Assembly (NCBI GenBank): GCA_963701095.1
Contig: OY969564.1
Location: forward strand, 800,001 to 864,000
Reading direction: 5' to 3'
Source: an uncultured Methanoregulaceae archaeon
Lineage (GTDB): Archaea > Halobacteriota > Methanomicrobia > Methanomicrobiales > Methanospirillaceae
DNA: 64,000 bases
The translations under genes were made by a program, and so were the position numbers. The notes below the pieces were generated by a model. The model saw only the letters and a program-made list of their open reading frames with translations, did no database searches and was not told where the DNA came from. Positions 9,277 to 45,940 of the stretch are shown here, piece after piece (positions within the stretch are counted from its first letter, which is position 1; the number at the start of each line of letters is the position of its first letter).

Positions 9277-9289
9277 TTGAGGATTCACT

Positions 9290-11817: not shown

Positions 11818-11818
11818 A

Positions 11819-19175: not shown

Positions 19176-19257
19176 TTCCCCAATCCCTCCCCATTCCTTC
19201 CTTTTCTGCCGAATTCATACCCAGATATAACCCCACAAAACACCAATATATTCAATG
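19176..19257 (+). promoter_or_regulatory. Conserved virion-gene promoter module, copy 1
   Basis: CT-rich tract, GCCGAATTCAT (19208), GATATAA, ATATTCA-ATG; ATG 47 nt after motif start. Confidence 0.8.
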
Positions 19258-20376
19258 CCCGATTCTCAAAAACTCGCCGCGGTCGACAACGAAGGGACGT
19301 TCTCCCACTCTTCTCATGATGTCCGGCTCCAGCGGCTCGACACGTACCTTCCCTACACCGGCACCCCATCCGGGAAACTGAAGTATACCGTAGACAACTT
19401 CGCCGGTACAGAAAAAGCCTGGGACAACGCTCTCGCCGTCTTTGTCCCGGAAGGCGTCCCCGTCCAGCACGTAGACCATACCCGGTTCGCCCATGATGCA
19501 CATGCGGAGGCTGCCCGGTTAGGGTACAGAATTGTCGGGCACCATGCAGATACGAAAGTCATAGACCAAGGCCCCGGAGAGCCGCGGGTCATGACCAAAG
19601 CCGTCTTCACCGACCCCGCAGTAGACCGGCTCGCACGTGAAGGAAAACTCTCCGTCTCAAGCGGCTTCGACGCCGAAATCATCCCCGGGGAAGACCGCAT
19701 GGCCGGTACCGTAACCCCCAACCACGTCCTCTACTTCATCAGGAACGAACCTACCGCCTTTGGCACAAAAGCCACGCCAAACGACCTCGGCGCCATGGTC
19801 GACAACCTCCAGGAACAAACCCCCGAAAACACGCTCCCAGGAACTCGCATGATAGAAACTGAAGAAACCAAAACGCTCCTTGAAAAGATCGCAAAGAAAG
19901 TCGACAACATCAGGGAACACGTCGTACCGAAACCCGAAGACCTCCAGGCCGCGGTTGACAACCTCAGGAAAGAAAGCGAGGACAAGACAGCAGAGATCAC
20001 CACCCTCAGACACCAGGTCACGGAGAAAGACACCACGATAACCGAGCTCCAGAAAAGCAAAGACCAGCTCGACAACCTCCTTGCACAGAAAGCCGAGGAA
20101 ACCAGGAACCAGCGGTGGCAGGAGGTCAAGAACCTGTACAAACCGGCACTCTTCCACAAGACCGACGACGAAACCCGGCTCCGGAACGAATTCGAACAGG
20201 ATCCCGCCGGGTTCGTTCTTGCAAACGTCAGTAACCTCGCACCCGCCCCGGCCAAACAGGAAGCACAAGGAAAATCAGCGATAGGAAACGTCGATAGCAT
20301 GGAAAAAATCGATACCCGCAAAGCCGCCGGCGTCTACGATGCCACGACCAAATCCATGAGACCGCTGGAGGGATAG
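19255..20376 (+). CDS. Prohead protease/scaffold (DUF2213-like)
   Basis: LSVSSGFDA, PNHV, C-terminal coiled coil; precedes capsid genes. Confidence 0.7.
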   Translation: MPDSQKLAAVDNEGTFSHSSHDVRLQRLDTYLPYTGTPSGKLKYTVDNFAGTEKAWDNALAVFVPEGVPVQHVDHTRFAHDAHAEAARLGYRIVGHHADTKVIDQGPGEPRVMTKAVFTDPAVDRLAREGKLSVSSGFDAEIIPGEDRMAGTVTPNHVLYFIRNEPTAFGTKATPNDLGAMVDNLQEQTPENTLPGTRMIETEETKTLLEKIAKKVDNIREHVVPKPEDLQAAVDNLRKESEDKTAEITTLRHQVTEKDTTITELQKSKDQLDNLLAQKAEETRNQRWQEVKNLYKPALFHKTDDETRLRNEFEQDPAGFVLANVSNLAPAPAKQEAQGKSAIGNVDSMEKIDTRKAAGVYDATTKSMRPLEG

Positions 20377-20380
20377 ATCC

Positions 20381-20845
20381 ATGCCGTCACTGTTCAACAA
20401 ACCGCTGAACCGCATCGTCCAGAACGATTTCGGCGGTGCCCTGTTCGCCCAGATCGGCCCGAACGCAACCCTCGCGTACATGATCCCCGGTGCTGTTGTC
20501 GCAAACGACACCTATGACAACTGTTTCAAGGAAGCCACCGATCCCAGCAACAACATCGGGGTGCTCGGGTACGAAGAAACCCTCCCGGCAAACCAGCCGC
20601 TCTCCATCACGAGCGCCTATACGGCCACCGGTACCAAGGTCGCCATCCACAACACCCCCGGTATGCGGTTCCATGCCTGGATCGCGGCAAACCAGAGTGT
20701 CAAACCGGGTACCCGGCTGAAATGCACCGCCGCCGGCCAGCTCACCCAGACGACTTCACCCACCGACCCTGTCAACGCGGTTGCCCTGGAGACGGTAACC
20801 AGCACCAGCGCATTCCAGGCGTGGTGTATCTGGACCATGAGGTGA
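20381..20845 (+). CDS. Putative head decoration/cement protein
   Basis: 154 aa between protease and capsid; VKPGTRLKCTAAGQL..AVALE. Confidence 0.55.
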   Translation: MPSLFNKPLNRIVQNDFGGALFAQIGPNATLAYMIPGAVVANDTYDNCFKEATDPSNNIGVLGYEETLPANQPLSITSAYTATGTKVAIHNTPGMRFHAWIAANQSVKPGTRLKCTAAGQLTQTTSPTDPVNAVALETVTSTSAFQAWCIWTMR

Positions 20846-20853
20846 TCTAAACC

Positions 20854-21758
20854 ATGACTTCCGATCTTACGTTTATTGAACGGACTTTTGACAAGGCCAT
20901 TGTCCAGGTCCTGCGTGAACCGACCGTGGGCTACAAGCTCATGCCGATGAACACCGATTTCCGGGGTATAGGAAAAGAGAGCGTTGAGTACTTCAACTAC
21001 AAACAGCGGGGCAGCGCGAAGATCGCGTACAGTTTTGACCGCAACGGTCCCGACACGATTGACGCCAACGGCACGATCATCAAGGTACCGATCCTCCAGA
21101 CCCAGGTCAAGATCCCGCGCCGGTCGTTCCAGATGATGGTCGACAACGGCGTCCCGTTATCCAACGATATCGCGTTCGATATGATCCGGGCGATCAATAT
21201 CCAGGTTGACGGGCTGGTGATCAACGGCTGGACAGAAGACGGCGTTACCTACGAATCGTTAGGCATGAGCCAGATTGCCGGGACTGCCGTTACCGGTGCG
21301 ACCGTCCAGACCTTCGGGAACACGTACAAGGCTATCCAGAAAGCCATTGCTGCGATGGTGCTTGCCGGTATTGATGCACCGGCCTACAACGCCCTCATGA
21401 ACCCTGTCCAGGCCGGGATCCTGAAAGGGTCTTTGAACGCGAACTCGGGCAACCCGGAAATGGCGATGGTTCTGGATGCGTTGAACCCGAACGGCGGCAA
21501 TACCGGGCAGTTCTTCCAGCGGTCTAACGTGCCGGCGGGATACATGATCGTTGCCCGGCACCGGTGGAAACGTCAAAGGCGTATTTCGATCTTATTGAGA
21601 CTGTGGCTCCCATGCACAACGCCTGGTTTGACAACGGGAACGAAAATACCGGTGATGTGTGGATCGAGCAGTATACCTGTCTTGTTCCCCGGTTCAAGCA
21701 CAAGGATCCTGTATTGCAAACCGATCCGGCTATCGCGTACGTATCTTCGATGACCTGA
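20854..21758 (+). CDS. Major capsid protein (HK97/encapsulin-like); frameshift near 21570
   Basis: Size, position, VPILQTQVKIPRR, DGLVING, PAYNALMNP; C-terminus continues in ORF 21564-21758. Confidence 0.75.
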
Positions 21759-21768
21759 GGTTTTTACC

Positions 21769-21972
21769 ATGAAACTCAAGGTTATCAAGAATACGCTGGT
21801 TCTGGCCGATGGTACCGTGGTTAAAGCCCACGCTCTTTTTGAGGCGGAGGAGCCCTATGCGAGTGAGTATATCAAGGGGAGAATAGCTGTGGCTGTACCG
21901 AGCTCTTCTGGTGAGAGTGTGGTACCGGAGGAAGAGAGGGTACGTCCGGGAAGACCAAGCGGGAAAAAATGA
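21769..21972 (+). CDS. Small hypothetical virion-block protein
   Basis: RBS GAGG, follows capsid, then T-rich tract. Confidence 0.55.
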   Translation: MKLKVIKNTLVLADGTVVKAHALFEAEEPYASEYIKGRIAVAVPSSSGESVVPEEERVRPGRPSGKK

Positions 21973-22300
21973 TACTTTAATCTTAAACAACTTTTTTTAA
22001 AAAATTACACTATATTTAGTGAACACTTTTTTTAGAGTATAACTCAAATATTGGTCCTCAGATATTCTTCAATTGAGATTCTCTCTCTTGAGTGCAATCG
22101 GTAAAAAGGCTGGTACAGGATAAATATTAGATTGTTAGTAGCTGATTTGCTTTCCTTTAATTGCGGTTAAATTCTCCGTTGAGGAATTCAAATATTTTGA
22201 GGATTCTTTGGCCGGGATCCTCTATGAGATTAAAATTAAGATCAATTATCACTTTATCAGAATCGGTTTAAAAATTATCAAATTATCATCAAATAAGAAA

Positions 22301-25300
22301 TTATTGGATGGTATTAGTGGTTCCTCCATTGATGGTATATTGAACTGATGTTCCATTTGCATATTTGAATTGATAGATATTGGGGAGCAGTTCAATACCG
22401 TTTGAGAATGTTCTCCAGCCATTCGCATAATATTGAGTAACATTTCCTGAGCTTGAAATCACTTGGCCTGTCTGGAAATTAACAATTAAATTGACGGAGG
22501 TATTTTGAATCAGCGTGTTTGTCCCACCTGCATAGGTCATTTGAAATGAATACGCTCCAGGTAGCATATTAAACATTGTCGAACCTGTTGAATCAGTTGT
22601 TCCAAACGGTTTCCATCCGTTGGCGTAATATGTTACAATTCCAGAGGATAGCGGGTTTCCGGCGCTATTCACCAATTTTACAGTTGCATTAGGAGCTTGG
22701 AATATTACTAACGAATTTTGACTGATATTCTGGGGAATATTGTTTGAGGTTCCAACGTAAACCATCTGGAATGTATACGATACAGGAAGAAGCTCAAGCG
22801 AGCAAGAGCCTCCGTTTGTTGATCCAAACGTCTTCCAACCGTTTGCGTAATACTGGACCGAACCGGCATTTGCAGCAGTAATAAGATTTCCATTACCGTC
22901 AATCAACTCTGTGGTGACATTAGTCGTCTGGAAGGTGACAGTGGGACTTACGCTTACGTTCTGAAGGAGGTTTTGCGCCCCTCCTGCATAGTCCATCTGG
23001 AACGTGTACGATAGAGGAAGGAGTTCTAGTGAACATATTCCGGCATTTGTGGATCCGAATGTCTTCCAGCCATTTGCGTAATATTGGACAGAACCGGCGC
23101 CTGGACCGGTTATGAGGTTGTTCTTACTGTCGAGTAATTTTACGGTCACATTTGTCGTCTGGAATGTTACAACAGATGATGAAATTACTGTTTGGAGCAG
23201 ATTTTGGGTTCCTCCACCATAATTCATTTGGAATGTATAGGTTCCCGGTGCAATATTCGATGTTGCAAGACCGTTTGCATTTGTCGTTCCAAAAGATTTC
23301 CAACCATTTGAGTAGTAATTGACTGTCGCACCAGAGATGCCTTGTCCCAGGCTATTCTTAAGAGCAACTGTAACACCTTGGGAGGTTTGGGGTGCATTCA
23401 CTTGAATATAATTAATGATGGTATCGGTATTGCTCCCACCTGCATTTGTAACCGTCAAACTCACAGTATAGTTACCAGCTGTACCAAAGGTGTGAGTGAC
23501 ATTCTGGAGGGAAGAATATGTACCGTCTCCGAAACTCCAGCTCCACGAAGTCGGTGAGTTCAGTGAGGTATCATTGAACTGTACAGTTAACGGAGCCGTT
23601 CCTGAAGTTGCATTTGATACAAACGAAGCAACCGGGGCGACGACGGGTGCTGAGACATTGATGTATTGAGTGACGGAGGTCATTCCTGCGTCATTTCCTG
23701 CAGTCAGAGTAACCGTGTAATTACCAACATTGCTATACGTATAGGTTGGATTTTGGAGAACTGATGAGTTCCCATCACCAATATTCCAAATCCAATAAGT
23801 GGGAGAATTCGTAGAGATGTCGGAAAATTGAACAGTCAATGGGGCCGCTCCCGTTGTCACATTAGAAGTGAAATTAGCATCGGGCGGATAAAACCCATCA
23901 ACGATAATATAATTATACTGTGTTCTTGTATCACTCCCAAGACCATTGCTTGCCGTTAATGAGACGGTATAATTTCCTGGATTTTGATAAGTATGTACCG
24001 GATTTTCCAAATTTGATTCCTGACCGTCCCCGAAATCCCATGACCATTGCGTTGAATTGCGAATGGATTCATCAGTAAATGTAACGGTCAACGGGCCAAA
24101 TCCTGAGGTAACATCTGAAGTAAATTGGGCACTTGGAGGGGCTGAAACGTTTAATTCCGTTGCATATTGGTTATTTAACTCTTGATCTTGTTGTTGAGAG
24201 AGATTGATGAGATTTGGAATTGTCTCATTATAATTAACAATTAATGATGTTGGTGCCATTAAAGTAAGATTCTTAATTGAATTTATCTCATGATCATTAT
24301 ATCCCATCTCCTTCAAGATCTGGATGTAATCCGATGGTAGACCGTTCTGACCGATTGCATTCTCTGCAGATATAATATCAGATTCAGTGGGCTGATACCC
24401 GATAGCTTGTAAATAATTTAATGCGGGACCTGACAAGACATTTTCTGTTTGATCATCATTCACCATTTTACTAGTATAATTGTAACATTCTATCTGTAAT
24501 TTTGCAGCCCAAATTGTATCATTAGCATCTAAAGCGCCTTCGTATTTGGCATATGCCTCTGCATAAGCCGAAGTGTCTGCTGCTGAAACGAGACTCTGTT
24601 GGGCAAATTTCTTTAATGGAGTATTCGGTGACTGATCAAGTTGTGGGATATCTATTGGTGTATCATTGATAGGCAAGGTGTAATTTGGATCCGGATCTGA
24701 GGCTGCCACATTATACTCTTCGCTTGTTTTAAATTCTGCAGCAGCCATTGTATACAGATCGGGATTATAAGTAGTAGTGGATATAGACTGTATAGATCCA
24801 CCTTCTTCTCCTTCATTCCCTCCGAACTCTATTACCAAAGTTGCGGTGGCTTGTAAAGACCAAATATCGCTAACTATTGAATGATAAAAACCTTGGGCAA
24901 GATCTATATCTTTTTCAAATGGTACAATTATTGGTACTATTATCGAAGTGCCTTGAGAAATATCGGGGGAGTTAAATTCATATTCATAATCAACCCCGTT
25001 ATCGGCAGCAATTAGGTTGCCGGCTTGAAGACCTGTCGATAAAATACTTAATAGTCTATCTACTTTATCTATTGCTTGCTGGAAAGGAGTACCTTCGTTT
25101 ATTGTTAGAGCATTCCCTACAGCATTTGCCATATCTGCGTCATTCGCAACATTATCAACGATCTCCTGCCCATTTTCATAATAGGTGTTACTTTCGAGCC
25201 ATAACCAATTCCAATCGTGTTGATAGTCCCCGCAAACAGGTCCTGTCAAATGGCGATGTTACCGTTACTGGGTGAGTTTCGTTATGTGTAGGTTGTATAG

Positions 25301-25859
25301 GACTGTGAGCAGTTATCCAATATGGCAATTCGGTTATGGTAATAGTGGTTGGGATAGAATAAGGCATCCCGTACGGATCGTGTAACTGTGCACATACTTG
25401 ATACGGCTGGTTCTTGTATAAAATAGGATTAATTACTGGGGAACAAATGCCATAAAGATTACATTGCCCAGCTTGCGAGTATACTTCATCGAAGGTGAGA
25501 GTCCCTATCCATGTAAGCTCGGCATTAATGGTATACGGGCCACTACTTTCAACATCAACCGTTGTTGACCAATCTTGGTATCCATAAAGCTTCACTGTAA
25601 TAGTATGAGTGCCATATTGTAAGAAATAGGCACCCGGAGTCACACCAGCAATCCCTGAACCATCCACAAAAAATTCAGCTCCAGCAGGAGTGGATGATAT
25701 ATCAACTTCTCCAGTGGGCGGTGGCGGGGTAGGAGTAGGGCCTCCAGATGGGGGGAGTGTAGCAGGTACCATCGGCATCATGCCTGCCGCCGATACAAAA
25801 TTGCTCATCATTACAACCATAAAAATTGCAAAAAATGAAATTATAAGTAGTCTTTTCAT
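22301..25859 (-). CDS. Secreted surface protein: signal peptide, PEGA, three PKD domains and YY(A/S)NGW repeats; frameshift near 25200-25250
   Basis: MKRLLIISFF signal; ISSTPAGAEFFVDG (PEGA); WSWDFGDG PKD repeats; five YY(A/S)NGW(K/R)xF repeats. Confidence 0.75.
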
Positions 25860-26012
25860 AAAATCAATATATTCATTAAAAAAATATACTATTTAACTTT
25901 TATCATTTAAATCTCTCATAATTTTGTCGATCATAAAATGAAAGAAAATGCTTCTTATACTGTAAAAACTTATTATAAATTTTAACAAAAAGTTTGTATA
26001 TCGTTATTTAAT

Positions 26013-26870
26013 CTATTTAATGCCATTCAATGCTACGAATATGAGTCCACTGATAAAAGTAATAATACCTAAGGAGATAATGAGGTAAATCGGTTTTGCT
26101 TTTTTTGCTATGTTCATGAGGAAATCTATCGCTAAATAACTGACGACAGTTGCGATAATTATTGTTATAACAATGCCAAGAATACCGGGACCAGCAATTG
26201 ATGCCATTAAATTAGCCGAATCAATACTAATCAACTCGCCTAAACTGGTGACGACTACGCATGCCAAAATAATTAGCGGCAAAAAAGAAAGGCGAAATGC
26301 TTCTTTTCCTTTGACATTTAATAATACAAGTGCGATTGTTGTTACCCCGGGAAGGCTTATCCCGGGAAGAAGGCAAAGATCTTGTATTATGCCAATAAGT
26401 ACGTATTCTCCGAATTTTATATCTAATAGCTGTCGCCTGAAATTATCATCTGTATATTTCGATTTAGAATACCAAATTACAAACGTATAAATAAAGAGGA
26501 TTATTCCAAGAAATGTTATGGGTAATCCGTCATTATACCACGAAAGTTGTCTAAGAACAAGCAATGGAAGAAAAAATACGAGACTAACAATACCTGTAAC
26601 AAGTATATATTTGAATAATCCCCACTCATCAGAGGTTCCCTTCCCAAGAAGTGCTTTAATGAGCGATATTATATCTTTCCTGAAATAAACAAGACCTGAT
26701 AAAGCAGTGCTGATATTTAGAATTAATACAAAATCAGATGCCTGAAGATTATTCAAGCCAAGAAGGTGTTGTGATAAAATGAATGCCTGACCACCAACTG
26801 GTAACCAAACGGTTACTGCCTGAATTACCCCAATAACTATTGAAAAGAAAATTTGTACAAGATTTAACAT
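26013..26870 (-). CDS. UppP/BacA-family membrane protein with degenerate catalytic motifs
   Basis: IGVIQAVTVWLPV, LVYFRKDI, IGIIQDLCLLPGIS, EAFRLSFL. Confidence 0.75.
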   Translation of the reverse strand: MLNLVQIFFSIVIGVIQAVTVWLPVGGQAFILSQHLLGLNNLQASDFVLILNISTALSGLVYFRKDIISLIKALLGKGTSDEWGLFKYILVTGIVSLVFFLPLLVLRQLSWYNDGLPITFLGIILFIYTFVIWYSKSKYTDDNFRRQLLDIKFGEYVLIGIIQDLCLLPGISLPGVTTIALVLLNVKGKEAFRLSFLPLIILACVVVTSLGELISIDSANLMASIAGPGILGIVITIIIATVVSYLAIDFLMNIAKKAKPIYLIISLGIITFISGLIFVALNGIK

Positions 26871-27196
26871 AATATCAAAATATTGTATGACAAATTTTAT
26901 ATAATTTATTGTTATATTTGGGTCTACGAAAATTCTGCATCGCGTTGAAACTTTGCTCCTCCTGAAGACTTTTCAGAACCACAAAAAATAGCGATAATAA
27001 TTCCAATTATCCATAAACCGGTTTGATTATTCGATATATTAGATAAAGTTCCATTGATATCCATTGATAGAATAGCCTCACGGTATGATGCAATATAATT
27101 ACCGTTATTAAATAGCACACTTCATTTTCTATTGAATTAATCGGATAACTCCGAACTGAGGTGCCAATTTTCCCAAATTCAATCAATCCAACCGCT

Positions 27197-27280
27197 TTTT
27201 CCCCAATCCATCCCTTTTCCTCCCGTTTTTGCCGAATTCATACCCAGATATAACCCCATACAACCCCAATATATTCAATG
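27197..27280 (+). promoter_or_regulatory. Conserved virion-gene promoter module, copy 2
   Basis: GCCGAATTCATACCCAGATATAACCCCA (27231) ... ATATTCA-ATG (27278). Confidence 0.8.
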
Positions 27281-27894
27281 CCCGATGCGCCGATAGCCTC
27301 CAAACCAACCGTCGTCAACATCCTCATGCCGGATGGTACAATAAAGCCCTGGAACCGGGCAACCGAACCCAAACCTGACAGTATAGGCAACCAGAGCCGG
27401 AACGGGTTCCTGTTCAACTGTTATTTTCATCCGCTCGGCCGGTTTTTCCAGAATACCATCAAAGCCGGGATCCTCTCGGTTATCCGGCGCATCCATGACA
27501 AGGAAATCCCCCGGTACGACCGGCAGGCATACGTCTACGAAGATAAACGGCTCCAGGTCTTAGACAAAATCATTACGGACGCAATCGAACGCACCATCCA
27601 GGACGCAGACAAAGACCGCAAACAGGAGATCCTCAACCAGTGCAAGGATATCTGCCTGTTCATGCTCAAGGAAGACGCCTTCTACCGGCCCCGGGTATCG
27701 AAGCAACCGTCCGGGCAGCAGAACAGATCCTGGAGAACAAAAATCTGCTCCTTTCCCTGACCGATTACGAAGCCTACAACATGACCCGGTTCGCGGACGG
27801 CACCAACCATGCCGGTGACTTTTCCGATCTTCCCGAAGATGAACGCTCGAAGCTCCCCAAACACTGGACGGACGGGAGCGTGTACGGCAGATGA
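27278..27894 (+). CDS. Hypothetical viral protein; frameshift near 27710
   Basis: ORFs 27278-27760 and 27640-27894 join; ATGA overlap with next gene. Confidence 0.55.
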
Positions 27895-28376
27895 CGACCG
27901 TCTTTGACACCTCCGGCAATATCATGCAGGAAGTTACGGATATCAGCAACTACACGGTCCCCGGCACCATCTCCATTCCAACATTCCTGCGGTTCCTGGC
28001 CAAAGCCGAAGAACAGGTCACCCTCGATGACCCCGGGTTCCAGCTCGCACAATGCACCGAAGCCGTGGCTCTCTACATCTGCCACCAGATTTACCGGAAG
28101 ACCGGGAAAAGCGGCGTAACCTCGGAACGGTTGGGAAGTTACAGTTTTTCCCGGGGTAAAGGGGTGCAGCTCACTCCCTGGCTGGACGATTACTACGATC
28201 TCATCGAACGGGTCCGGGCACCGGTGATCTCGCTCAGTACGCTCGATACCAACGGTGTCCGGCGCGACGATGCAACCATGAACCTGCTCCGGCCCGACCA
28301 GGCATGGGTTGTGGGAAGCGACGAGCAAACAAACCCGCCGACCGGAGGCATGGGCGATCTCATGGGGTACCGGTGA
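27891..28376 (+). CDS. Head-tail connector/adaptor
   Basis: EAVALYICH..GVTSERLGSYSFSR typical of gp6/gp15-type adaptors. Confidence 0.65.
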   Translation: MTTVFDTSGNIMQEVTDISNYTVPGTISIPTFLRFLAKAEEQVTLDDPGFQLAQCTEAVALYICHQIYRKTGKSGVTSERLGSYSFSRGKGVQLTPWLDDYYDLIERVRAPVISLSTLDTNGVRRDDATMNLLRPDQAWVVGSDEQTNPPTGGMGDLMGYR

Positions 28377-28630
28377 TGGCTGACGCCACAAAACCACAAA
28401 CCGACCGCGAATGGCTGGTCCAGATTGACGGCAAGGTGGACTCTATCCTTTCCCGGCTGGAAAAAGGGGATTCCTGTATGAAAGATTACAGTGACCGGCT
28501 CGATGCCCTGGAGAAGTTCCAGGCGAAGCTCATCGGCATTGCCATAAGTGTGTCTTTACTCGCATCGTTCTGCGGGTACTGGATACTCTGCAAGTTAAGC
28601 GAACTGGGTATCGGCGGCGGTGGTCGCTGA
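28376..28630 (+). CDS. Small coiled-coil plus TM protein (holin-like)
   Basis: MADATKP..RLDALEKFQAKLIGIAISVSLLASF; start overlaps previous stop. Confidence 0.5.
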   Translation: MADATKPQTDREWLVQIDGKVDSILSRLEKGDSCMKDYSDRLDALEKFQAKLIGIAISVSLLASFCGYWILCKLSELGIGGGGR

Positions 28631-28975
28631 ATGGATATCACCAGTGGCCTGCTTGCCCAGACGGTAACTATCGCACCGTTCCTTTCCCTGAGCCAGAACG
28701 GTGACCGCAGTTTTGGGACACCGGTTACCTATCCCTGCCGGGAAGAAAACGAGATCCGGGTGATCAAGAACAAGCAGGGCGAAGATGCGGTGAATTCAAG
28801 CCAGCTCTATCTTTCGCCAACCTACACCGACGCTTCCGGGAACGTGTGGCCTACAGTGATTGGCTATTATGACCGGATTACGCTCCCCAGCGGTACGCAA
28901 CCGCCGGTAATCCTGAAGATTAACAGTTATACCGACCTTGACGGATCGGTGGCATACATCGAGGTCGATACCTGA
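28631..28975 (+). CDS. Head closure protein
   Basis: QTVTI..GDRSFGTPVTYPCR..NKQGEDAVNSSQLYL; position. Confidence 0.6.
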   Translation: MDITSGLLAQTVTIAPFLSLSQNGDRSFGTPVTYPCREENEIRVIKNKQGEDAVNSSQLYLSPTYTDASGNVWPTVIGYYDRITLPSGTQPPVILKINSYTDLDGSVAYIEVDT

Positions 28976-29399
28976 TGACGGTGACGTTCACCCTTGAAGG
29001 AACTGACGAGGTTGTGGCAAACGTGAATCGAGCCCTGCAGGAAGTCCCGGAACTGGTGTTCGGGGAACTGGTGGGATATGCCGACCAGATACTTCTGGCA
29101 TCCGAACCACAGGTACCATGGAAGACCATGCACCTTGAAGAGACGGGAACGGTTGAACCGGTAGATGACGACCCCAACGCCGTCCAGATTGTGTATGATA
29201 CTCCCTACGCCGCTAAGCAGCACGAGGATTTGACCCTGCACCACCCGAAACCCGGGACCAAAGCGAAATACCTGGAGGATCCCGCGATGGCTATGGTACC
29301 GGAGATTGTACCGGGATTGTGGATAAACTGCAGGATTATTTCGATACTGGGGTTCCGGATGTGACTGCGTTATCTGCATGGGAACACTTGGATGAATAA
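28975..29399 (+). CDS. HK97 gp10-like neck/tail completion protein; probable frameshift near 29320
   Basis: VPWKTMHL, YDTPYAAKQHE, GTKAKYLEDP; alternative frame ends DKLQDYFDTG..EHLDE*. Confidence 0.7.
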
Positions 29400-29540
29400 T
29401 CCCACGACGGTTCAGTTTCTTCGCCGGGACTTTTAAATAGTCAGCATTGATCAGATAATCCCGCTCTGAAGCAAATGTGAAGAAACAGCACTTGAGGACA
29501 TTGTATTGGGACAAAGAAAAGTTGCGCAGATACGTTTTGT

Positions 29541-30290
29541 CTATTTTTGAAGACCAAATATTATATTTGTTATTCGACTAGTTCCTATTCCACAACATCC
29601 AGTGTAAAATGATTCCCCTACTGGAATTTCCAAACCTTCAATAAAAATTCTTCCATGAAGATGAAACCCTACAACTTCGATCCAAGAATTATCAACCAAC
29701 ACCTCAATATCTCTAACCATAAGTTCTTTTGTATCGTTTTCTTCGTTGTTTTTTATAGAAATGCGTGTAGTTAATCCAAGATTTGATAGTGTGTTTTCTA
29801 AATTTTTCATTAATTCGCTCAAAATAAATTTTGCTTCATCAATTGGAGCGAACCATACGCATTCTATCCTTTGAAACTCGAATAGCCTATAATCATTTAC
29901 ATCTTTTTCAACTCTATAAGTCCATCCCGATTTATCAAAAAATTTTATCGTTTTATGGGGCTTCCTATTTTTTAAGAAATAGTAAAATGGTTCACATTGC
30001 CAATGTGATAAAGTATATTTTTTTGGATAATTCCGTGAACTCATTCCTTCTTCGGTGTTAATTATTTCTTTTGACCATTCTTTAGCAAATCGAGGGACAA
30101 CATTTTTTAAGTTACAAAATTGATCAAACATAAGTAATTTGGGAAAGAGACACTCTTCAAACCCAGCTTCAGTTAAAGATTGCGCTAATTTTGATTCAAC
30201 TGCTCTAAATTTTGAAGTATATTCTGGCAAATATAGTCTTTGACCCTGCCACCCAATTTCTTCCCATAACTCTTTCTTTTTATTTTTCAT
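29541..30290 (-). CDS. Stand-alone catalytic domain of methanogen-type seryl-tRNA synthetase (class II aaRS paralogue)
   Basis: EECLFPKL, QCEPFY, FDKSGWTYR, EFQRIECVW, TGCCGIGTSR; only 249 aa, no tRNA-binding domain. Confidence 0.8.
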   Translation of the reverse strand: MKNKKKELWEEIGWQGQRLYLPEYTSKFRAVESKLAQSLTEAGFEECLFPKLLMFDQFCNLKNVVPRFAKEWSKEIINTEEGMSSRNYPKKYTLSHWQCEPFYYFLKNRKPHKTIKFFDKSGWTYRVEKDVNDYRLFEFQRIECVWFAPIDEAKFILSELMKNLENTLSNLGLTTRISIKNNEENDTKELMVRDIEVLVDNSWIEVVGFHLHGRIFIEGLEIPVGESFYTGCCGIGTSRITNIIFGLQK

Positions 30291-30293
30291 ATT

Positions 30294-31271
30294 TTAAACC
30301 TTCCGAATTTTTTCAAAATGTTCTAATAAATATTTAAGCGCCGTTTCTTTAATAACTGGTTTTCCAGAATGATCTTTTACAATGTTTTCATACGAAGAAT
30401 AATCATTATCGCCAATTTTTATTGTTTTATACATTTGAAAAACTATGTAATCAAAAATTAATTTAATGAATTCGTTTGAACATTTATTAATAATATCTGC
30501 AATCACCTCAGGATCTTGATCACTATATATTGAATTTGAGGATTTCCCAGTGGAAAGGGGCAAGGAGTCAGTTCCACATAAAGTGTCAAAGTACAAGATT
30601 AATGGGGCATTATAATCGGGAAGGCCGCCATCAACAACAACCTTCCTCATTAATCCGCCCCAAATTGTTTCAACATCACCTTTTCCTGTCAACAACACTT
30701 GGCTTTTAACAATGTTTCCATAGGAAATTTCACAAAAATTATTTATTAAATCCCTAATCGGATTTTCCCTAACAATCCATTTTTTAATCCATTCTTCGTT
30801 GAAATCACATTTATACGCAATTGATAAGAGTGTGTTTGAAAATTTTTCATAACCTATATATTCCAAAATATTAGATTCTGTTAAAAATTCTGTTTTGGTT
30901 GGTGTCAATCCAGCTTGTATGTACCTTTTAATACAAGTTTCAACTCTCTTATCTATAGTTGGTTTTGGGATATGTTGTTGTTTTTCAATTAATTGGTCAT
31001 AAAATAACACCACACAATTAAATCCCTGATCTATACATTGCTTAATTTTTAGGCAAAATATTGCATGGAGAAGGTTATACTCTTCTGATGGTTGAACATT
31101 CCAAATTAAAATTGGGGCTTCTTTTTTATCATTGATTTTATCCCAAATAATATGTAACTCCGAATCTGCGGAACCAGACGTAGAATAGCGAGATAATTCT
31201 ACCTTTGGTGAAATTATTAAAATTTTATTTTTAAATTCCTGAAATGTTTCAGCTTTTTCAATCATGTTCAT
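30294..31271 (-). CDS. TyrRS/TrpRS-like class I aaRS paralogue with degenerate HIGH/KMSKS motifs
   Basis: IWNVQPSEEYNLLH, CVVLFYD, LLTGKGD, TLCGTD..LSTGKSSNSIYSDQDPEVI align by eye with the archaeal TyrRS core. Confidence 0.6.
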   Translation of the reverse strand: MNMIEKAETFQEFKNKILIISPKVELSRYSTSGSADSELHIIWDKINDKKEAPILIWNVQPSEEYNLLHAIFCLKIKQCIDQGFNCVVLFYDQLIEKQQHIPKPTIDKRVETCIKRYIQAGLTPTKTEFLTESNILEYIGYEKFSNTLLSIAYKCDFNEEWIKKWIVRENPIRDLINNFCEISYGNIVKSQVLLTGKGDVETIWGGLMRKVVVDGGLPDYNAPLILYFDTLCGTDSLPLSTGKSSNSIYSDQDPEVIADIINKCSNEFIKLIFDYIVFQMYKTIKIGDNDYSSYENIVKDHSGKPVIKETALKYLLEHFEKIRKV

Positions 31272-31698
31272 TCGACCCCAGATAATTTTTCAGGAATTGC
31301 TTTATCTCATCAAAGGATTTGAAAATAAAAAATATGATGGTTAAAATAATGCCTATTATTCCAATATAGAAATCAAATATAGGTACTGTAACAAATTCAT
31401 TTTTCCATAAATAATTCAAAATCTCAATAATTAGGACTACTAGTGAAAGAAAAGTTATTATTAAACATAATAATCTGATTTTAATAATCTTTTCTGAAGA
31501 AATATTGTATCGTTTTTCTTTAGATAATATATATCTATTAAAACCATTTCTCGTAACTTTAATATTAGGATTCTTAAACACATCAAATATTTTGCTTGCA
31601 TTTTCGTTTGGAATCTCAATTTTTATTTCCACATCACCAGATAATGTTAATATCAACTGCTCAAGACTACTGATATCATTAATTATTTTTTGTTCCAT
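31258..31698 (-). CDS. Two-TM membrane protein, first gene of the aaRS-like operon
   Basis: Two hydrophobic helices; overlaps downstream gene start. Confidence 0.65.
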   Translation of the reverse strand: MEQKIINDISSLEQLILTLSGDVEIKIEIPNENASKIFDVFKNPNIKVTRNGFNRYILSKEKRYNISSEKIIKIRLLCLIITFLSLVVLIIEILNYLWKNEFVTVPIFDFYIGIIGIILTIIFFIFKSFDEIKQFLKNYLGSNEHD

Positions 31699-31892
31699 AG
31701 GTCATGATTGATAATGTTACTAACGATATCTCCACTTACATGATATAATTTTTGAATCAATCAATCGTATTGTGTTAAGGGGAATTTAGACGTCCCTTTG
31801 ATGCGGAGTAATGTTGACCAAACACAATAAAATAATCTTTTGAGAATATTAGACTTAAAAAGAGGGTTGTAAAATTCTTTTAAAAAGTCTTC

Positions 31893-31974
31893 TTTTCCAA
31901 AATCCCCCATTTTCCTCCCGATTTTGCCGAATTCATATTCAGATATAACCCGTAAAACACCACTATATTCAATG
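31893..31974 (+). promoter_or_regulatory. Conserved virion-gene promoter module, copy 3
   Basis: GCCGAATTCATATTCAGATATAA (31926) ... ATATTCA-ATG (31972). Confidence 0.8.
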
Positions 31975-32021
31975 GCCTATTTTCAGCTCGCATTGGTCAA
32001 TAACCAAAGAGGCCGGTTTTC

Positions 32022-32416
32022 ATGACCGCTGAGACTGATATCGCCACCTATCTCGCAGCCCAGGGATTTGGTACCCTCGGTTCTAATATTTTCGTCAACG
32101 ACCGGCCTGCCTCACCGGATGCCCTTATTGCAGTCTTCGGGTATACTGGCCAGGCCCCGGAACGTACCCACGATACTTCAGGTAATTCCAAGCCCGGAAT
32201 CCAGGTCTGGGTACGGGGAGCGGTAGATGGTGCCGGGCAGCCCGGGCACAGATCGAAAGCATCTTTGCCGCACTCGACGGCATGACGAACACTACCATCA
32301 ACGGGACGTTTTACGTTGGCATCAACGGCATCCAGTCCGGGGCAACCCCGATGGGCAAAGACGAGGTCAACCGTCCCGAATACGTGTGGAACTTTACCTG
32401 TACCGTGAGGCGGTAA
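32022..32416 (+). CDS. Tail terminator/minor capsid-family protein; frameshift near 32240
   Basis: DIATYLAAQGFG, PGIQVWVRG, second frame PMGKDEVNRPEYVWNF. Confidence 0.7.
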
Positions 32417-32515
32417 ATGCAGGCCCGGAAAGCACCACACGAGAAAACGCCGCAGCCGGCAAAAAAGCCGCATTTTACGACGCACAAACCCCGTAAACGG
32501 AGAACCTGAAAAACC

Positions 32516-32926
32516 ATGTCATCTTTAGCCCAGAGAGGACAGGGCACGACCCTGTCAAAGACCGGTAGTCCCTACCACATCGCCGAAATCACCAAGATAG
32601 GAGCTTTTGGCGCGAAACGTACGATGGTCGACGTAACCAGCCACGACACCGCCGGGAATGCCGACGACTGGATCTCCGGCCAGCTCCAGGGCGGCGACCT
32701 CAAGATCACCGCGAACATGATCCACACCGACACCAGCGGCCAGGTGCAGGCTGTGACCGACATGCTTGCCGGGAACAAGACCTCGTACACTATCACGCTG
32801 CCAACCGGGTCGACCTGGGTGGCGACCATGACCTGCCAGGAATACCAGGTCACCACTGATCTCAAGAACGCGATCACCATCGACCTGTCGTTCAAAGTCA
32901 GCGGTGTACCCGTCTGGACGCCCTGA
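32516..32926 (+). CDS. Major tail tube protein
   Basis: IAEITKIG..VDVTSHD..WISGQLQGG..SFKVSGVP siphoviral tube pattern. Confidence 0.85.
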   Translation: MSSLAQRGQGTTLSKTGSPYHIAEITKIGAFGAKRTMVDVTSHDTAGNADDWISGQLQGGDLKITANMIHTDTSGQVQAVTDMLAGNKTSYTITLPTGSTWVATMTCQEYQVTTDLKNAITIDLSFKVSGVPVWTP

Positions 32927-32934
32927 GGTAAACC

Positions 32935-33364
32935 ATGACCGTCCCTTCCGTAAAAGTGAGCCTTGACAAAGAATACGAACTACGGTTCGAGCAGGACGAT
33001 GTCATTGCCTGCGAAGACGAGATGAAGATGGGCTATGTCTTCTTTTTCCGGGTCGAGCGGCTGAACGGTATCCTTGTTCCGACTGTACCTCAGCCTGAGG
33101 CTGCTCCGGACACTCATTCATCACGGCCTGAAAAGCCGGAACGACCGCGGCGATTTCGTGTATGCTCTGCCGCAATCCAGCGAAGGAAAGAAAATGGCCG
33201 GAGATCTCATCCAGCAGTTCAAGCAGGCCGGCGGCCATGATATCGATCTCTGGGAGAAATGCCGGCAGGCATTCGCAGACTGGTTTGCCACACCGAAGGA
33301 GGGGGAGGTTTCCCAACCGGAACCCACAGGAGAGGAATCAAAAAATGTGCCCGGCGCTGGATAA
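32935..33364 (+). CDS. Tail assembly chaperone (gpG-like); indel near 33075
   Basis: Position after tube gene; LDKEYELRF; ends at slippery A AAA AAT. Confidence 0.65.
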
Positions 33365-33684
33365 CGAGCGCCGAACCGTTCGCATACGGGATATGTGGGT
33401 TAACTCGTGACCAGTTCCGGCATTACACTCCGGCAGAATTCGATGTGCTCTACCAAGCCCGGTGTAAAGCGAGAGATGAGCCGCTGTTTGCTTTCGACGC
33501 CATGAACGCGGTGCTGTGCATGGTGATAGCCCGGTGTGCCGGAAACAAGGACGCAAAGCCAGACGATTTCCTGACCCTTCTGCGGGAAACGAATGAAAAT
33601 GACGAGGTACCGGCAATGGGCGATAGTCCGGCTACAATACAACGGAAACTGGAACTTATGGCAGTATCGATGAGGCAACGGTAA
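33340..33684 (+). CDS. Tail assembly chaperone extension (gpT-like, -1 frame)
   Basis: GLTRDQFRHYTPAEF motif, -1 frame relative to upstream chaperone. Confidence 0.65.
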   Translation, partial: KKCARRWITSAEPFAYGICGLTRDQFRHYTPAEFDVLYQARCKARDEPLFAFDAMNAVLCMVIARCAGNKDAKPDDFLTLLRETNENDEVPAMGDSPATIQRKLELMAVSMRQR

Positions 33685-33770
33685 TGGGAATGGCGATAAA
33701 TTGGAGAACTTAGCATAGTAGAAGAAAATGGAGAATATCAAGGGGTTTTAGCTAAAAAAGAGAATAGGAG

Positions 33771-34475
33771 TTATCCCCAGCCCATAAGCTCGTACGTGAT
33801 GGAACCACTTGGGAAATTTGAAATCATCTTGACAGGAACCGGAATGCCTGATGCTGACCAATAGGTAAAGGTCGTTTCATTCACCAATCTGGTATATTTG
33901 CTAGCATTAGGATAGGATCCCGCCGGCACTGAAACTGGTTCAATGTCTACAAAAGTGAGCGGTGTTGCCGTGTTGAAACTTGTTACTGCATCTAGTGAGG
34001 TCTGACCTGGAGGAATGTTCGTTGTTGTTTTCTGGCCATTGAACGTAATTGTCATCGTCCCACCGAGTAAAGAGTTCATCGACAAATCATAGTAAGTATC
34101 ATAAACCGTGTTTAAACCGTTTGTCGAAGATGTCATGGTAATTTTTGAATGGATTGCCGATTGCCCTTGATAAGTTCCGATGGACCTCTCCACCTTCATA
34201 TCCATCACTATAGTGTTACCACCAGTCGCTGTTGTAGCCTGATATTCAAACCAATTGAAGTTCGTTCCGAAGACCGATGAGGAATTTACGATCGAACCTG
34301 CTTGAGGCAATGCCAACGAAGGATTTGATGGCGGGCTGGTCGCAGAAGGAGTGCCCGACGATGTGGGAACGGATACATTCGAAGATGGAGGGGTAGTTTG
34401 AGATGTACAACCCATAAAAGTGATCGCAATAACCACAAGCATAACTGAAATTATACCGACAAATGCTGATTTCAT
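33771..34475 (-). CDS. Putative lipoprotein/surface protein (cargo)
   Basis: Signal with lipobox FMGC, Ser/Pro/Thr linker, VSVPAGSY. Confidence 0.7.
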   Translation of the reverse strand: MKSAFVGIISVMLVVIAITFMGCTSQTTPPSSNVSVPTSSGTPSATSPPSNPSLALPQAGSIVNSSSVFGTNFNWFEYQATTATGGNTIVMDMKVERSIGTYQGQSAIHSKITMTSSTNGLNTVYDTYYDLSMNSLLGGTMTITFNGQKTTTNIPPGQTSLDAVTSFNTATPLTFVDIEPVSVPAGSYPNASKYTRLVNETTFTYWSASGIPVPVKMISNFPSGSITYELMGWG

Positions 34476-34662
34476 TGGTATCCTCCAAAGATTTGAACAG
34501 AAATCACAAAAATCCGTTTTCGTGTATTTGAAATCTTGAATGTTAGGATTGATTGATAATAGTTCATATTTCGGAAATATTTAATAATTTCCAAATTATT
34601 CAAACAAACATTATCGCGACACCTATCCCCATGATTCAGTAATTTATTCAAAATTAAACCTT

Positions 34663-34776
34663 TTTTCCCAATCCCTCCATTTTCCGTGCGATTTTGCCGA
34701 ATTCATGCTCGGCTATAATCCGGCAAAACACCACTATATTCAATGGAAGCAGGCGCTATCATCGTCCGGTTGAATC
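34663..34776 (+). repeat. Promoter module copy 4 plus first 11 codons of tape measure gene (114-bp direct repeat of 35766-35879)
   Basis: Three mismatches over 114 bp by eye; offset 1103 bp. Confidence 0.9.
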
Positions 34777-34820
34777 GCTCTTACTACTTTTGGTCTGGGC
34801 GGTCCTTGCTGGAATAATTC

Positions 34821-35657
34821 TTACACATTCAACATTTCCGGCAACTTTCTCGCCCATGACTTGATCTTATCTCCCTCCTGAAAATCCGTTGAGGGAATAT
34901 TTTTGTTTTTTGCGAAACGTGTCGTGAAGCTAAGTTTTTTCTGACCCGGTGCAGCGGTAAAAAAGATTGAGGAGACCGGAGAGATTGGAGATAATGCCAT
35001 TTTCACGTTTGTCATCACAGAGTCAGGATTCATTCCCTCAAGACCAACAGCAAAAATGGCTACCGGCATGTGTGACAACTGTTCGCTAAAACGTTTTTTT
35101 GTAAAATTTCCAATATCCCCTAAACCTGTTGGTCCGGTAAAAATCGGTACTCCGATAATAACCGCAGAATAATTTTCCAGCGAGGACACGTTTTTCATAT
35201 CAGCTACATCAATAGTATATTCTGCCGTACGCAGTTCGTTTCCGATCTCCTGCGCGATTTCTGGTGTTGATCCGAGGAGTGATGAATAGGTAATGAGAAT
35301 ACGATTGCCGTAAAACTCTCCTCCGTTGTAAGATTCCCCGGATAAGGGCATATTTGTCTTTGTATATCTGTCACTCCAGGAATCCGGAACATATATTCCA
35401 TTGCCTGATGTCGACAACGAAGTCCGGTTTTGACGTTTCAATTCCTGCAGAAGGTGCGAGTGTACAAAATGCCATCGGCAATAATCTAAACATATAGCCC
35501 CAGAAAGTAAAACGACAAAGATGCCGATGTCAAAACCCCTAAAAGGAAGGATTGTAAAACGAAGCTGTGGAATAATGAAGAATAAAATAACAGCTGTCAC
35601 GAGTACTTTCAGAACAAATATTTTCCAATTATTGAAGTATCCAGTAATATAATCCAT
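34821..35657 (-). CDS. Membrane-anchored flavodoxin-domain (HemG-like) protein (cargo)
   Basis: Two N-terminal TMs; ILITYSSLLGSTPEIA, YSAVIIGVPI, PVAIFAVG. Confidence 0.75.
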   Translation of the reverse strand: MDYITGYFNNWKIFVLKVLVTAVILFFIIPQLRFTILPFRGFDIGIFVVLLSGAICLDYCRWHFVHSHLLQELKRQNRTSLSTSGNGIYVPDSWSDRYTKTNMPLSGESYNGGEFYGNRILITYSSLLGSTPEIAQEIGNELRTAEYTIDVADMKNVSSLENYSAVIIGVPIFTGPTGLGDIGNFTKKRFSEQLSHMPVAIFAVGLEGMNPDSVMTNVKMALSPISPVSSIFFTAAPGQKKLSFTTRFAKNKNIPSTDFQEGDKIKSWARKLPEMLNV

Positions 35658-35695
35658 GAATTAACAAATACTATTCACATTAAATTTATAAAGAT

Positions 35696-35710
35696 GATTT
35701 CTACAGAGCC
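35696..35710 (-). repeat. Dispersed repeat GGCTCTGTAGAAATC, inverted copy
   Basis: GATTTCTACAGAGCC on + strand. Confidence 0.6.
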
Positions 35711-35765
35711 AAAAAAAAATCCTAATAAGTGATTTCGAAATAAATTATTCTCCTCAAACCACCCC

Positions 35766-35848
35766 TTTTCCCAATCCCTCCATTTTCCGTGCGATTTTGC
35801 CGAATTCATGCTCGGCTATAATCCGGCAAAACACCACTATATTCAATG
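35766..35848 (+). promoter_or_regulatory. Conserved virion-gene promoter module, copy 5
   Basis: GCCGAATTCATGCTCGGCTATAA (35799) ... ATATTCA-ATG (35846). Confidence 0.8.
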
Positions 35849-37642
35849 GAAGCTGGCGCTATCACCGTCCGGTTAAATCTGGATGCGTCCGGGATGCAGG
35901 GCGGTATCTCCAGCCTCAACCAGGGCATAACCGGCGTTGCTGCACAGTTCGATGTCCTCCAGTATGCGGCATCGGCCGTGTTCGGGTACGTCGAACAGGG
36001 ATTCAGTGATACCGTCGGTACTGCCATTGCGTACTCTGACCAGATGCAGCACGTCTCTGATGTAACCGGCATGAGTGCTGAATCTGCGCAGAAATGGAAC
36101 GCCGCCAATATCTCGGTTGGCGGTTCCCTGGATTCGATGCTCTCTTCGCTCCAGATGGTACAGGGTAAGATCGCCGACACAACCACCGCTGGCAATACCT
36201 ACCGGAAAACCCTGGACGATCTGGGCATCGCGTACAAAGATGTCAACGGCAATTATCTCGACGCCGATACCCTCCAGAAAAACATCCTTGAAAGCCTCAG
36301 CAAAGTAACCGATGCCACCCAGCGGGACTCGGATGCCCGGCTTATCTATGGCCGGGGATGGGCAAGCAATGCCGAACTTATCACGAACGCCACTAAAGCC
36401 CTCCAGACCTATAACGCGACCCCGGCGCCATTCTCCGACGACCAGATAGCCGCTGCCCACAACATGGGAATCGAGCTTGACGAGTTCAATGCCAAACTCT
36501 CCATTACCCAGACCACCCTTGGCATGGAACTGTTACCATCGGTAAACACCTTGGTAACCACATTCAGTTCGGCTTTCAATGAGGACAGCCCGGTCATCAC
36601 CTTTTTCTCATGGCTTGATGGAGCGATTGAAGATTCCGTCGAAGGGTTCGCAAAACTCGTTGGCGGTATCGAAGCCGGCACCATCGCCGTCGCGGATATT
36701 ACCAGCGGGAAAGGACTTGCCCAGGCAACGGCAGATTTCCAGGCCCAGGAAAACAAGACCACCGCTTACATCACCAACCTCCACGGTCAGTTCGATCTCT
36801 CAAAAGAGGCGATGGCTCAAACCTCATCGCCCGCCGAAGCCGCAAGTACCCCTGCCGCCACAACGCCGTCAGATACCACGCCTGCCAAAGCGGCAAAGAG
36901 TACCAAAACCACCACACCAAAAACTGGCTCCGGGTGGGACGATGCCGCCATTGGTCCACCGGGTTCCGAAATGAACCAGTTCATGATGCAGGCAGAGGCA
37001 GCGGGGCAATCCTATAGCGATGCCCTTGACCTCTGGGCCGGAGAAGGCCAGGGTACCCCGGCAAACATTGCGTTCCTGCAGCAGTTCCAGGCCGGACAGG
37101 CAAACCAGGGCATGAATGAGCGGGCAGCCGCAGATTCCGGTAGCACGAGTACAACCACCCCGGCCAGCACGACAAAGACCGCCGATGCCCCGAGCCAGTA
37201 CGATACCCAGCTCAAAGCCGCCCAGAAATTTTACAGCGACCTGCAGGCACTGGAGACCACGCAGCTTACGGCCTTAAACAAGATCGAACAGACGTACTGG
37301 ACAAACGTTACCCAGATGGCTCAGGCAGCGCTTGCCGACTGGCAGAGCATCGCCACCCAGATCTCCAGTATCATTGCGTACGAGAATACAATAACGGCGA
37401 AAAACGGGGTGGCACAGTCCCAACCTTTGGCTGCCCAGACCGTCACCGGTTCTTCCATCAGCACCGCGAACCCAAACACGTCGATAACCGCAGGAAGTCC
37501 CGGTGGAAATACAGCGCCATCCGCTCCGGCGATAACCGTCAACGTCACCGCTCCCTCAACCGACGCCGGCGATATCGTCAACGCTGCAAGGAACGCCCTC
37601 CAGGTAGCCGGTAACAGTGTATCGGCAGGGAGCCTGTACTGA
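35846..37642 (+). CDS. Tape measure protein
   Basis: GAITVRLNLDAS N-terminus, Ala/Thr-rich helical, follows chaperones. Confidence 0.8.
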   Translation: MEAGAITVRLNLDASGMQGGISSLNQGITGVAAQFDVLQYAASAVFGYVEQGFSDTVGTAIAYSDQMQHVSDVTGMSAESAQKWNAANISVGGSLDSMLSSLQMVQGKIADTTTAGNTYRKTLDDLGIAYKDVNGNYLDADTLQKNILESLSKVTDATQRDSDARLIYGRGWASNAELITNATKALQTYNATPAPFSDDQIAAAHNMGIELDEFNAKLSITQTTLGMELLPSVNTLVTTFSSAFNEDSPVITFFSWLDGAIEDSVEGFAKLVGGIEAGTIAVADITSGKGLAQATADFQAQENKTTAYITNLHGQFDLSKEAMAQTSSPAEAASTPAATTPSDTTPAKAAKSTKTTTPKTGSGWDDAAIGPPGSEMNQFMMQAEAAGQSYSDALDLWAGEGQGTPANIAFLQQFQAGQANQGMNERAAADSGSTSTTTPASTTKTADAPSQYDTQLKAAQKFYSDLQALETTQLTALNKIEQTYWTNVTQMAQAALADWQSIATQISSIIAYENTITAKNGVAQSQPLAAQTVTGSSISTANPNTSITAGSPGGNTAPSAPAITVNVTAPSTDAGDIVNAARNALQVAGNSVSAGSLY

Positions 37643-38523: not shown

Positions 38524-38541
38524 ATCCCGGCAGCGAATCCT

Positions 38542-45932: not shown

Positions 45933-45940
45933 GCTGATTC

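Follow-up and report, generated by a model that had tools for sequence, protein, structure and literature searches.

A predicted head-gene promoter copied after cargo insertions in a methanogen provirus recurs in host gene arrays

The closest described counterparts of the locus analyzed here are repeats and insertions associated with viral promoters. In T4-type phages, promoter-early stem-loop (PeSL) cassettes combine, according to the excerpted accounts, a sigma-70 early promoter with a stem-loop terminator and a Shine-Dalgarno sequence; they lie mostly in hyperplastic regions of lytic phages and drive accessory genes (PMC2839356; PMC4122927). The class II intergenic repeats of halovirus HF2 and HF1-like viruses are repeated archaeal TATA promoters of 29 bp in the late morphogenesis module, conserved across the virus group and active in reporter assays; the available extracts of those reports do not describe them as cargo flanks or recombination points (PMC8707807; PMC7230728). 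Morons are accessory transcription units, with a promoter and a terminator of their own, inserted between virion genes of tailed-phage late operons, and one moron-type segment of SPP1 is bracketed by transcription signals, as the excerpted source has it (PMC6316719). We analyzed a 64,000-nt stretch (the window, G000:C1:800001-864000) of G000, the 2.63-Mb single-contig genome (86% complete) of a peat methanogen of the Methanoregula genus. In the late region of a long-tailed provirus, placed there by Pfam and PHROGs matches, the window holds five copies of a module of about 85 bp, each at the right edge of a block of AT-rich cargo. We favor, at a probability of roughly 0.7, a model in which the module would be a head-gene promoter that restarts transcription after cargo insertions and, once repeated, would act as a homology arm for cargo exchange.

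The module works like a PeSL cassette, but is a predicted archaeal TATA promoter without a stem-loop, stands before core virion genes that follow cargo, belongs to a temperate virus and has further copies in host arrays. Gene swapping by recombination between copies, as in PeSL cassettes, has a counterpart here in one cassette, on comparative evidence. Excised, encapsidated mini-circles are another PeSL feature; the sequence material compared here consisted of assembled contigs. Unlike the HF2 repeats, with which it shares the repeated late TATA promoter, it is lineage-specific and tied to cargo insertions, and it is recognized as a promoter by sequence and spacing. As with morons, the cargo is absent from relatives, lies between conserved late genes and differs from them in base composition; what differs is that the same predicted head promoter is re-used after each insertion and fused to the next virion gene. 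Relaxed homologous recombination (HR) with defective prophages likewise leaves a high-identity segment between two partly identical arms, called 'HR traces', and the available text of that study links the mosaicism of E. coli phages to Rad52-like recombinases and to exchange between an active and a defective element (PMC3945230); here, no such enzyme was identified among the 18 early-region ORFs scanned, and the donors would be arrays with almost no viral sequence. Co-oriented repeats also separate unrelated accessory genes in integron arrays and in clusters of attC sites lacking integrases (CALINs), including archaeal ones. The attC site folds into a conserved single-strand hairpin, and an integron integrase is not required for a CALIN. 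In contrast, the arrays reported below have no attC-like hairpin, no integron integrase and variable breakpoints; their repeats are pieces of a viral promoter and of viral genes, and we trace them here to the slot boundaries of this one provirus. Literature on methanogen provirus repeats, on repeated promoters with morons and on halovirus repeats gave no description of such an arrangement, most subscription journals lying outside the coverage.

The core motif GCCGAATTCAT occurs exactly five times in the window, always on the + strand (19208, 27231, 31926, 34696 and 35799), and each time is followed by TATAA and then by ATATTCA-ATG. From motif to ATG the distance is 47, 47, 46, 47 and 47 nt in copies 1 to 5; TATAA starts 28-29 nt before the ATG, and the TATA 8-mer is separated from it by 23 nt. 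Across 85 nt the five copies are 76-100% identical (nhmmer E-values 1e-20 to 1e-28, with a model built from the same copies). Among 17 copies from several sources, pairwise identity averages 0.76-0.87 in the core and 0.59-0.62 in the pyrimidine tract, but falls to 0.25-0.30 to the left of offset -37; given this drop, the left edge of the module is sharp.

Copy 1 (19171..19257, + strand; pyrimidine tract, GCCGAATTCAT, TATAA, 23-nt spacer and ATG, with its left edge near -37) opens a 373-aa open reading frame (ORF) at 19255, the scaffold gene discussed below. Copy 2 (27194..27286, +) shares ATGCCCGAT with it; these first three scaffold codons now begin, in frame, the conserved virion-block gene at 27278, so that its product starts MPD, against MAD or MAT in homologues. 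Copy 3 (31889..32025, +) runs into a 17-codon leader ORF (31972-32025), a decayed start of the scaffold gene joined to native pre-terminator sequence, and the TGA of the leader overlaps the ATG of the tail-terminator gene (ATGA). Such an overlap is an arrangement for translational coupling. Copy 5 (35762..35848, +) provides the ATG of the tape-measure gene at 35846. Copy 4 (34659..34776, +) carries a 34-nt remnant of the tape-measure gene start and matches the copy 5 stretch at 111 of 114 nt; it opens a 24-codon ORF only, which runs into the 3' end of a flavodoxin gene, so no virion gene is restarted by it, and on its sequence we read it as a duplication or integration scar. The preliminary description of this locus was exact as to the motif positions, the spacing, the virion genes opened by copies 1, 2 and 5 and the sharing of ATGCCCGAT. 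Its claim that transcription restarts after every cargo slot does not extend to copy 4, and the inverted repeat that it reported (GCCGA-N8-TCGGC) is indeed present in copies 4 and 5, but in those only, and is not a conserved feature.

The five cargo blocks, which we number as slots 1 to 5 by the copy to their right, have a GC content of 30-41% against 56-59% for the virion genes, and 12 of the 16 cargo ORFs taken as real are antisense, as had been described for the blocks to the left of every copy. On the + strand, stretches of at least six T number 39 in 17,660 nt of cargo and 0 in 15,379 nt of virion genes. Since polyU tracts are transcription termination sites in the methanogen Methanococcus, according to the excerpted study (PMC10450193), read-through across the cargo should be poor.

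The scaffold gene ties the module to related viruses. It has 39 homologues besides itself, and its protein is modeled with a beta-rich N-domain and a long coiled coil. In a wide structural search the best match of the N-domain was the T4 gp21 prohead protease fold, a middling one (Z 6.6, root-mean-square deviation 3.5, 118 aligned); Foldseek of the scaffold model returned nothing at E<=0.001. Because of the N-domain match, the coiled coil and the gene position, the product is predicted to be a prohead protease-scaffold. An alignment of 28 of the 40 scaffold proteins was used to fetch 10 viral loci from about seven distinct viruses; L049-L051 are near-identical, as are L045 and L046, and these are not independent. 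TATAA lies 28-32 nt before the orthologous scaffold ATG in 8 of the 9 related loci with upstream sequence, three near-identical loci also carry GCGAATTC upstream, and the homologues mostly start MP or MS at the same place. The promoter is single in each of the nine within the fetched locus, which in two cases reaches <3.1 kb downstream. Slots 2 to 5 hold no cargo in relatives: start-to-start distances are 1,113-1,576 nt at slot 2 (8/8 relatives; 6,424 nt here), 419-521 nt at slot 3 (8/8; 3,047 nt here) and 427-447 nt at slot 4/5 (6/6; 2,587 nt here). Given the conserved spacing, the single promoter and the empty slots, comparison identifies copy 1 as the ancestral promoter of the protease-scaffold gene and copies 2-5 as derived. 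Slot 1 is a hotspot of the family, expanded in 2 of 8 related loci; in one related virus (L046:2372-9577) it holds about 7 kb of glycosylation-like genes, labeled from reading the sequences.

Both the promoter reading and the cargo-slot architecture of the preliminary description therefore stand up to comparison with relatives. The module is a predicted TATA promoter, with an mRNA that is probably leaderless and starts at the ATG. GCCGAATTCAT, TATAA and ATG are all retained by the five window copies; at least one of these elements is missing from 5 of the 7 full-length copies at other G000 sites, as selection for function in the virus would predict. As for regulators, two ORFs had been proposed. 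One, a 68-aa ORF (10911..11117, +), is conserved at 37-42% identity in 7 of 10 related loci, at the same place shortly before the scaffold promoter, and is the best candidate regulator of the module. The other (42951-43307) was found in 0 of 10 loci, and the rest of the host genome carries three paralogues of it.

The module also occurs away from the provirus. A scan of G000 with a refined profile gives 14 sites, the five window copies and nine beyond the window (seven full-length, two partial). At 5 of the 7 full-length outside copies, 13-204 nt of the start of the scaffold gene, gene 27278 or the tape-measure gene come next, and then unrelated DNA; scaffold-start remnants follow seven outside copies (six, plus one in G116:C70 with the first three codons). 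In an island at 669-712 kb of G000, 15 of 15 virus-derived pieces are co-oriented between accessory genes: five modules, six copies of a 67-aa gene of the virion block, two chaperone ends, one connector-block end and one tape-measure start. The pattern was found in 2 of 108 genomes of the genus, G000 and G116, the latter a second species, and in five metagenome loci, of which L024, L025 and L026 largely repeat G116 sequence and are not independent. G116 has five modules on three contigs and no full-length match to any virion gene. One of its arrays runs module, PKD gene, chaperone end, lipoprotein, module, flavodoxin, module; in a second (C70), cargo is interleaved with virion-gene fragments and the viral order is broken. 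On the right-hand side, the breakpoints are scattered between 9 and about 470 nt beyond the ATG. A degenerate module in opposite orientation also lies between the portal gene of a third provirus and defense cargo (G000:2083751-2083834). In addition, a 77-nt repeat after the polymerase gene of another provirus bounds array cargo too (L022:9693-9773 and 11891-11967; G000:772977, 680531 and 2111992).

One cassette allows the boundaries of exchange to be read. The interior of the flavodoxin cassette is identical at 943 of 983 nt (96%) between the window and L026, a virus-free array of the other species, whereas the modules that flank it are only about 80% identical (35 of 172 sites differ). Restricting the interior to synonymous and non-coding sites leaves 23 of 337 different (Fisher p=1.3e-5 against the modules), and the background identity of the two genomes is 83% (14 alignments, 52 kb). 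Over 85 nt, copies 4 and 5 do not differ at all; the two L026 modules share 85% identity. The junction between tape-measure remnant and flavodoxin gene is common to both species, while the right module is followed here by the full tape-measure gene and in L026 by a 41-nt scaffold remnant. The step from 96% in the interior to 80% in the modules supports movement of the cassette by recombination at the modules, as had been proposed for the repeats, and with it gene flow between two Methanoregula species. Other slots give related signs. The arms of slot 4 (the chaperone-gene end on one side, module and tape-measure start on the other) enclose a different lipoprotein gene in L022 and L026, and G116:C70 holds, between virion-gene fragments, a cargo gene with 92% identity to one beside a module at G000 703396-704296. 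A contig of run X3, about 92% like the capsid end plus the 67-aa gene, continues with different sequence directly after the 67-aa gene, which suggests another filling of slot 2.

These arrays and the cassette also bear on a narrower explanation, in which rare illegitimate events produced the copies and selection for promoter restart preserved them, the outside copies being debris of decayed proviruses with no role in cargo movement. G000 does hold several decayed proviruses, the cargo is stable across four studies, and internal virion-gene fragments also bound cargo in G116:C70, so that the module is not the sole arm. But array fragments are repeated (the 67-aa gene six times) and out of viral order, and deletion within a single provirus cannot make such arrays; nearest neighbors among the module copies cross downstream-gene types, and between-species identity falls at both modules flanking the flavodoxin cassette. 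We consider restart without exchange unlikely.

Under the favored combination of promoter restart and homology arms, the ancestor would have had one TATA head-operon promoter before the protease-scaffold gene, with GCCGAATTCAT upstream of the TATA box as a putative regulator site and a single transcript through the tail genes. Foreign AT-rich blocks would then have entered three more junctions of the operon in this lineage. Their T-runs and antisense genes would cut off the virion genes downstream, and given this polarity, the insertions that survived would be those ending in a promoter copy joined to the next virion gene, either by start-codon fusion (copies 2 and 5) or through a short leader with coupled translation (copy 3). 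Having multiplied, the repeat of 85-115 nt would serve as a homology arm. Diverged copies would recombine homologously, as would other short virion-gene fragments, and cargo would thereby move between the provirus and the co-oriented chromosomal arrays. Both the recombinase and the direction of transfer are presumptive. Copy 4 would record integration of the flavodoxin cassette at the tape-measure promoter, with duplication of that promoter; by the simplest route, a cassette circle excised between two modules would integrate there and leave the 114-nt direct repeat. Such a sequence of events would give an archaeal virus a route for loading defense, surface and redox genes into its virion operon without loss of expression, the head promoter being copied after each insert, and would connect the accessory islands of peat-methanogen hosts with viral cargo and with decayed proviruses. 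The late promoter, the 68-aa ORF as candidate regulator and the predicted 1,103-bp flavodoxin circle can be tested directly.

Several observations weigh against this model. On the promoter side, leaderless mRNAs are a minority in two methanogens, at 11-16% in the excerpted report (PMC4983044), and the excess of host TATA boxes at -26 to -36 is about two-fold only, with crude start calls; as to polarity, T6+ runs are absent from cargo 4 and number only three in cargo 2. On the exchange side, the same cargo and several junctions recur at 99%+ identity in runs from four studies, and no contig in four runs shows a clean empty slot or a module-to-module circle, so exchange would be slow or past, and the slots are not in fast turnover. 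Only one cassette gives a full breakpoint test, and gene conversion alone could raise the identity of copies 4 and 5. No Rad52-like or other recombinase, helicase or primase match appeared among the 18 early-region ORFs scanned. The provirus itself may not be infectious, because a MuF gene, which follows the portal in eight related loci, has no match in G000 (expected place 10756-10911) and because depth in run X1 shows no induction, being mostly 7-13 in the provirus against 9 at host scars. In SPP1, about 25% of virions remain infectious without MuF, according to the excerpted source (PMC6316719).

Nor was a second intact virus with several modules found in the viral contigs, genome contigs and phage records searched. 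The scaffold protein gave 0 confirmed of 5 candidates in viral contigs, and its alignment 0 confirmed of 47 in genome contigs; the module pattern gave 0 in viral contigs and, in its strict form, a single stretch in genome contigs, the G116:C7 copy. A 106-nt module had 0 matches in 40 relatives, and a 126-nt module had no blastn match in 50,697 phage records, a search that would miss short diverged homology such as any to the 29-bp repeat of an HF1-group virus. Seventeen terminase-linked viral loci showed no other virion-block gene match and one weak promoter look-alike (L032, E 0.01). Four joints considered as empty slots (31986>33612, 35757>21819, 19263>27437 and 27525>21777) were rejected, as they match scars elsewhere in G000 or in G116:C70.

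A bolder extension of the favored model would make this virus lineage a multi-slot cassette shuttle for its host, with integron-like exchange through promoter copies and homologous recombination and without a site-specific recombinase. The structural operon would be divided into blocks, each restarted from the same promoter, so that any insert could be tolerated; the host would keep libraries of accessory genes bracketed by operon pieces, which could be loaded into the virus and unloaded elsewhere, including in other species. This extension is conceivable, though we regard it as doubtful. One relative's contig measures 40 kb (completeness unknown) against about 62 kb for the provirus, which may package mainly the cargo-laden 41 kb from terminase to right attachment site.

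The provirus might instead have acquired the module from its host, as a regulator site, an insulator, a bidirectional promoter serving the divergent cargo gene too, or a miniature mobile element. Nine copies do lie beyond it, all five window copies have a divergent cargo gene to their left, and HF2 class II repeats are bidirectional, according to the available text (PMC8707807). Beyond the window, however, the left neighbor is often co-oriented, most outside copies carry virion-gene remnants, the pattern is limited to 2 of 108 genus genomes, and the module has neither terminal inverted repeats nor a conserved fold, which makes a host origin improbable; bidirectional activity could add to the restart and homology-arm model instead of replacing it. 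Least probable of all is an attC-type site at which a tyrosine recombinase would insert cassettes: repeats of one orientation between unrelated genes, the sharp left edge of the module, the imperfect inverted repeat in copies 4 and 5 and several tyrosine recombinases in the genome would fit, but there is no conserved hairpin (12 folded strands, DNA parameters, z-scores +1.8 to -1.9, the best at 11/200 shuffles), an integron-integrase profile gave ten weak matches (best 48 bits against a cut-off of 265, in a genome 86% complete), the right-hand breakpoints leave no fixed crossover point, other virion-gene pieces also act as boundaries, and the module is, by comparison with relatives, an ancestral viral promoter. 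Rfam gave 0 structured-RNA matches in 19000-36000 at E<=1.

The late region that hosts the copies comprises terminases, portal, decoration, capsid, connectors, tail terminator, tube, chaperone, tape measure and Dit, all on the + strand: terminase small and large subunits and portal (7457..10756, by family matches); prohead protease-scaffold (373 aa), head decoration, major capsid protein and the 67-aa gene (19255..21972), the last at 21769-21972 and, in decayed copies, punctuating the host arrays; a head-completion/connector block (27278..29381); tail terminator, tail tube and tail assembly chaperone genes (32022..33692); and tape measure, Dit and minor tail genes (35846..41433). Frameshifts at 21553, 27697, 29310, 32234 and 33088 are assembly errors according to short-read contigs from four runs, so the virion genes are intact; a reading of the frameshifts as decay of the provirus was discarded, since five in virion genes and one in cargo proved to be assembly errors wherever the runs cover them. 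A tRNA-Thr gene (48760..48833, - strand) is the probable right attachment site; a partial copy lies at G000:786606 beside an integrase (the two together at 786606-787850), and from these ends the provirus would be about 62 kb long. A 105-nt tandem duplication (48792-49043) overlaps the tRNA-Thr at this provirus end. Window DNA is present in soil, peat, freshwater and unlabeled metagenomes; one of 20 runs is RNA, as contigs with a share of 0.06, and the comparison with reads used runs with larger shares.

Between cargo and the terminase small subunit stands a sixth, restart-like module of another type (7242..7357, +). It consists of the head-protease promoter of a second provirus (108-136 kb in G000) together with a 5' remnant of that gene, and this type was matched at two sites only, here and at G000:122937-123054. 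A hybrid of both module types occurs at G000:2359610, before a terminase-small-like gene.

Slot 1 (11140..19170; 37% GC) holds a three-gene sense block, a UG5/DRT-type reverse transcriptase with a nitrilase, a PD-(D/E)XK nuclease, a proteasome-subunit-like gene and a small zinc-finger ORF. Its three-gene sense cassette at 11242-13685, in which gene 1 has weak DarG/PDC-M19A matches and the other two have no family, is possibly an undescribed defense module. The reverse transcriptase and nitrilase at 13826-16907 are split into two ORFs, which may be an assembly error, this part lying beyond the read-covered stretch. Slot 2 (21990..27190, -; 38% GC) encodes a PKD surface protein, a PEGA protein and a BacA-family protein. 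Slot 3 (29400..31890, -; 30% GC overall) has three antisense genes at 29541-31698, of 24-31% GC, the last with a weak class II tRNA-synthetase-core match. Slot 4 (33700..34655, -; 41% GC) encodes a predicted lipoprotein with a weak SlpA_N match and a paralogue elsewhere in the genome, and slot 5 (34778..35760, -; 39% GC) is the membrane-anchored flavodoxin cassette.

Further repeats and blocks lie in and around the cargo. An 80-nt intergenic repeat in cargo 1 (18013-18094), found also at four other G000 sites, in L027 and at four G116 sites, is probably another cassette boundary. A GC-rich block upstream of the terminases (18-5584) encodes an amidase-TIG protein and two large ORFs without family match. 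At the other end, a block of SRAP, radical SAM and family-B polymerase genes (44111-48495) is repeated at several genome sites, and the 80-nt region upstream of its polymerase gene recurs at eight other sites.

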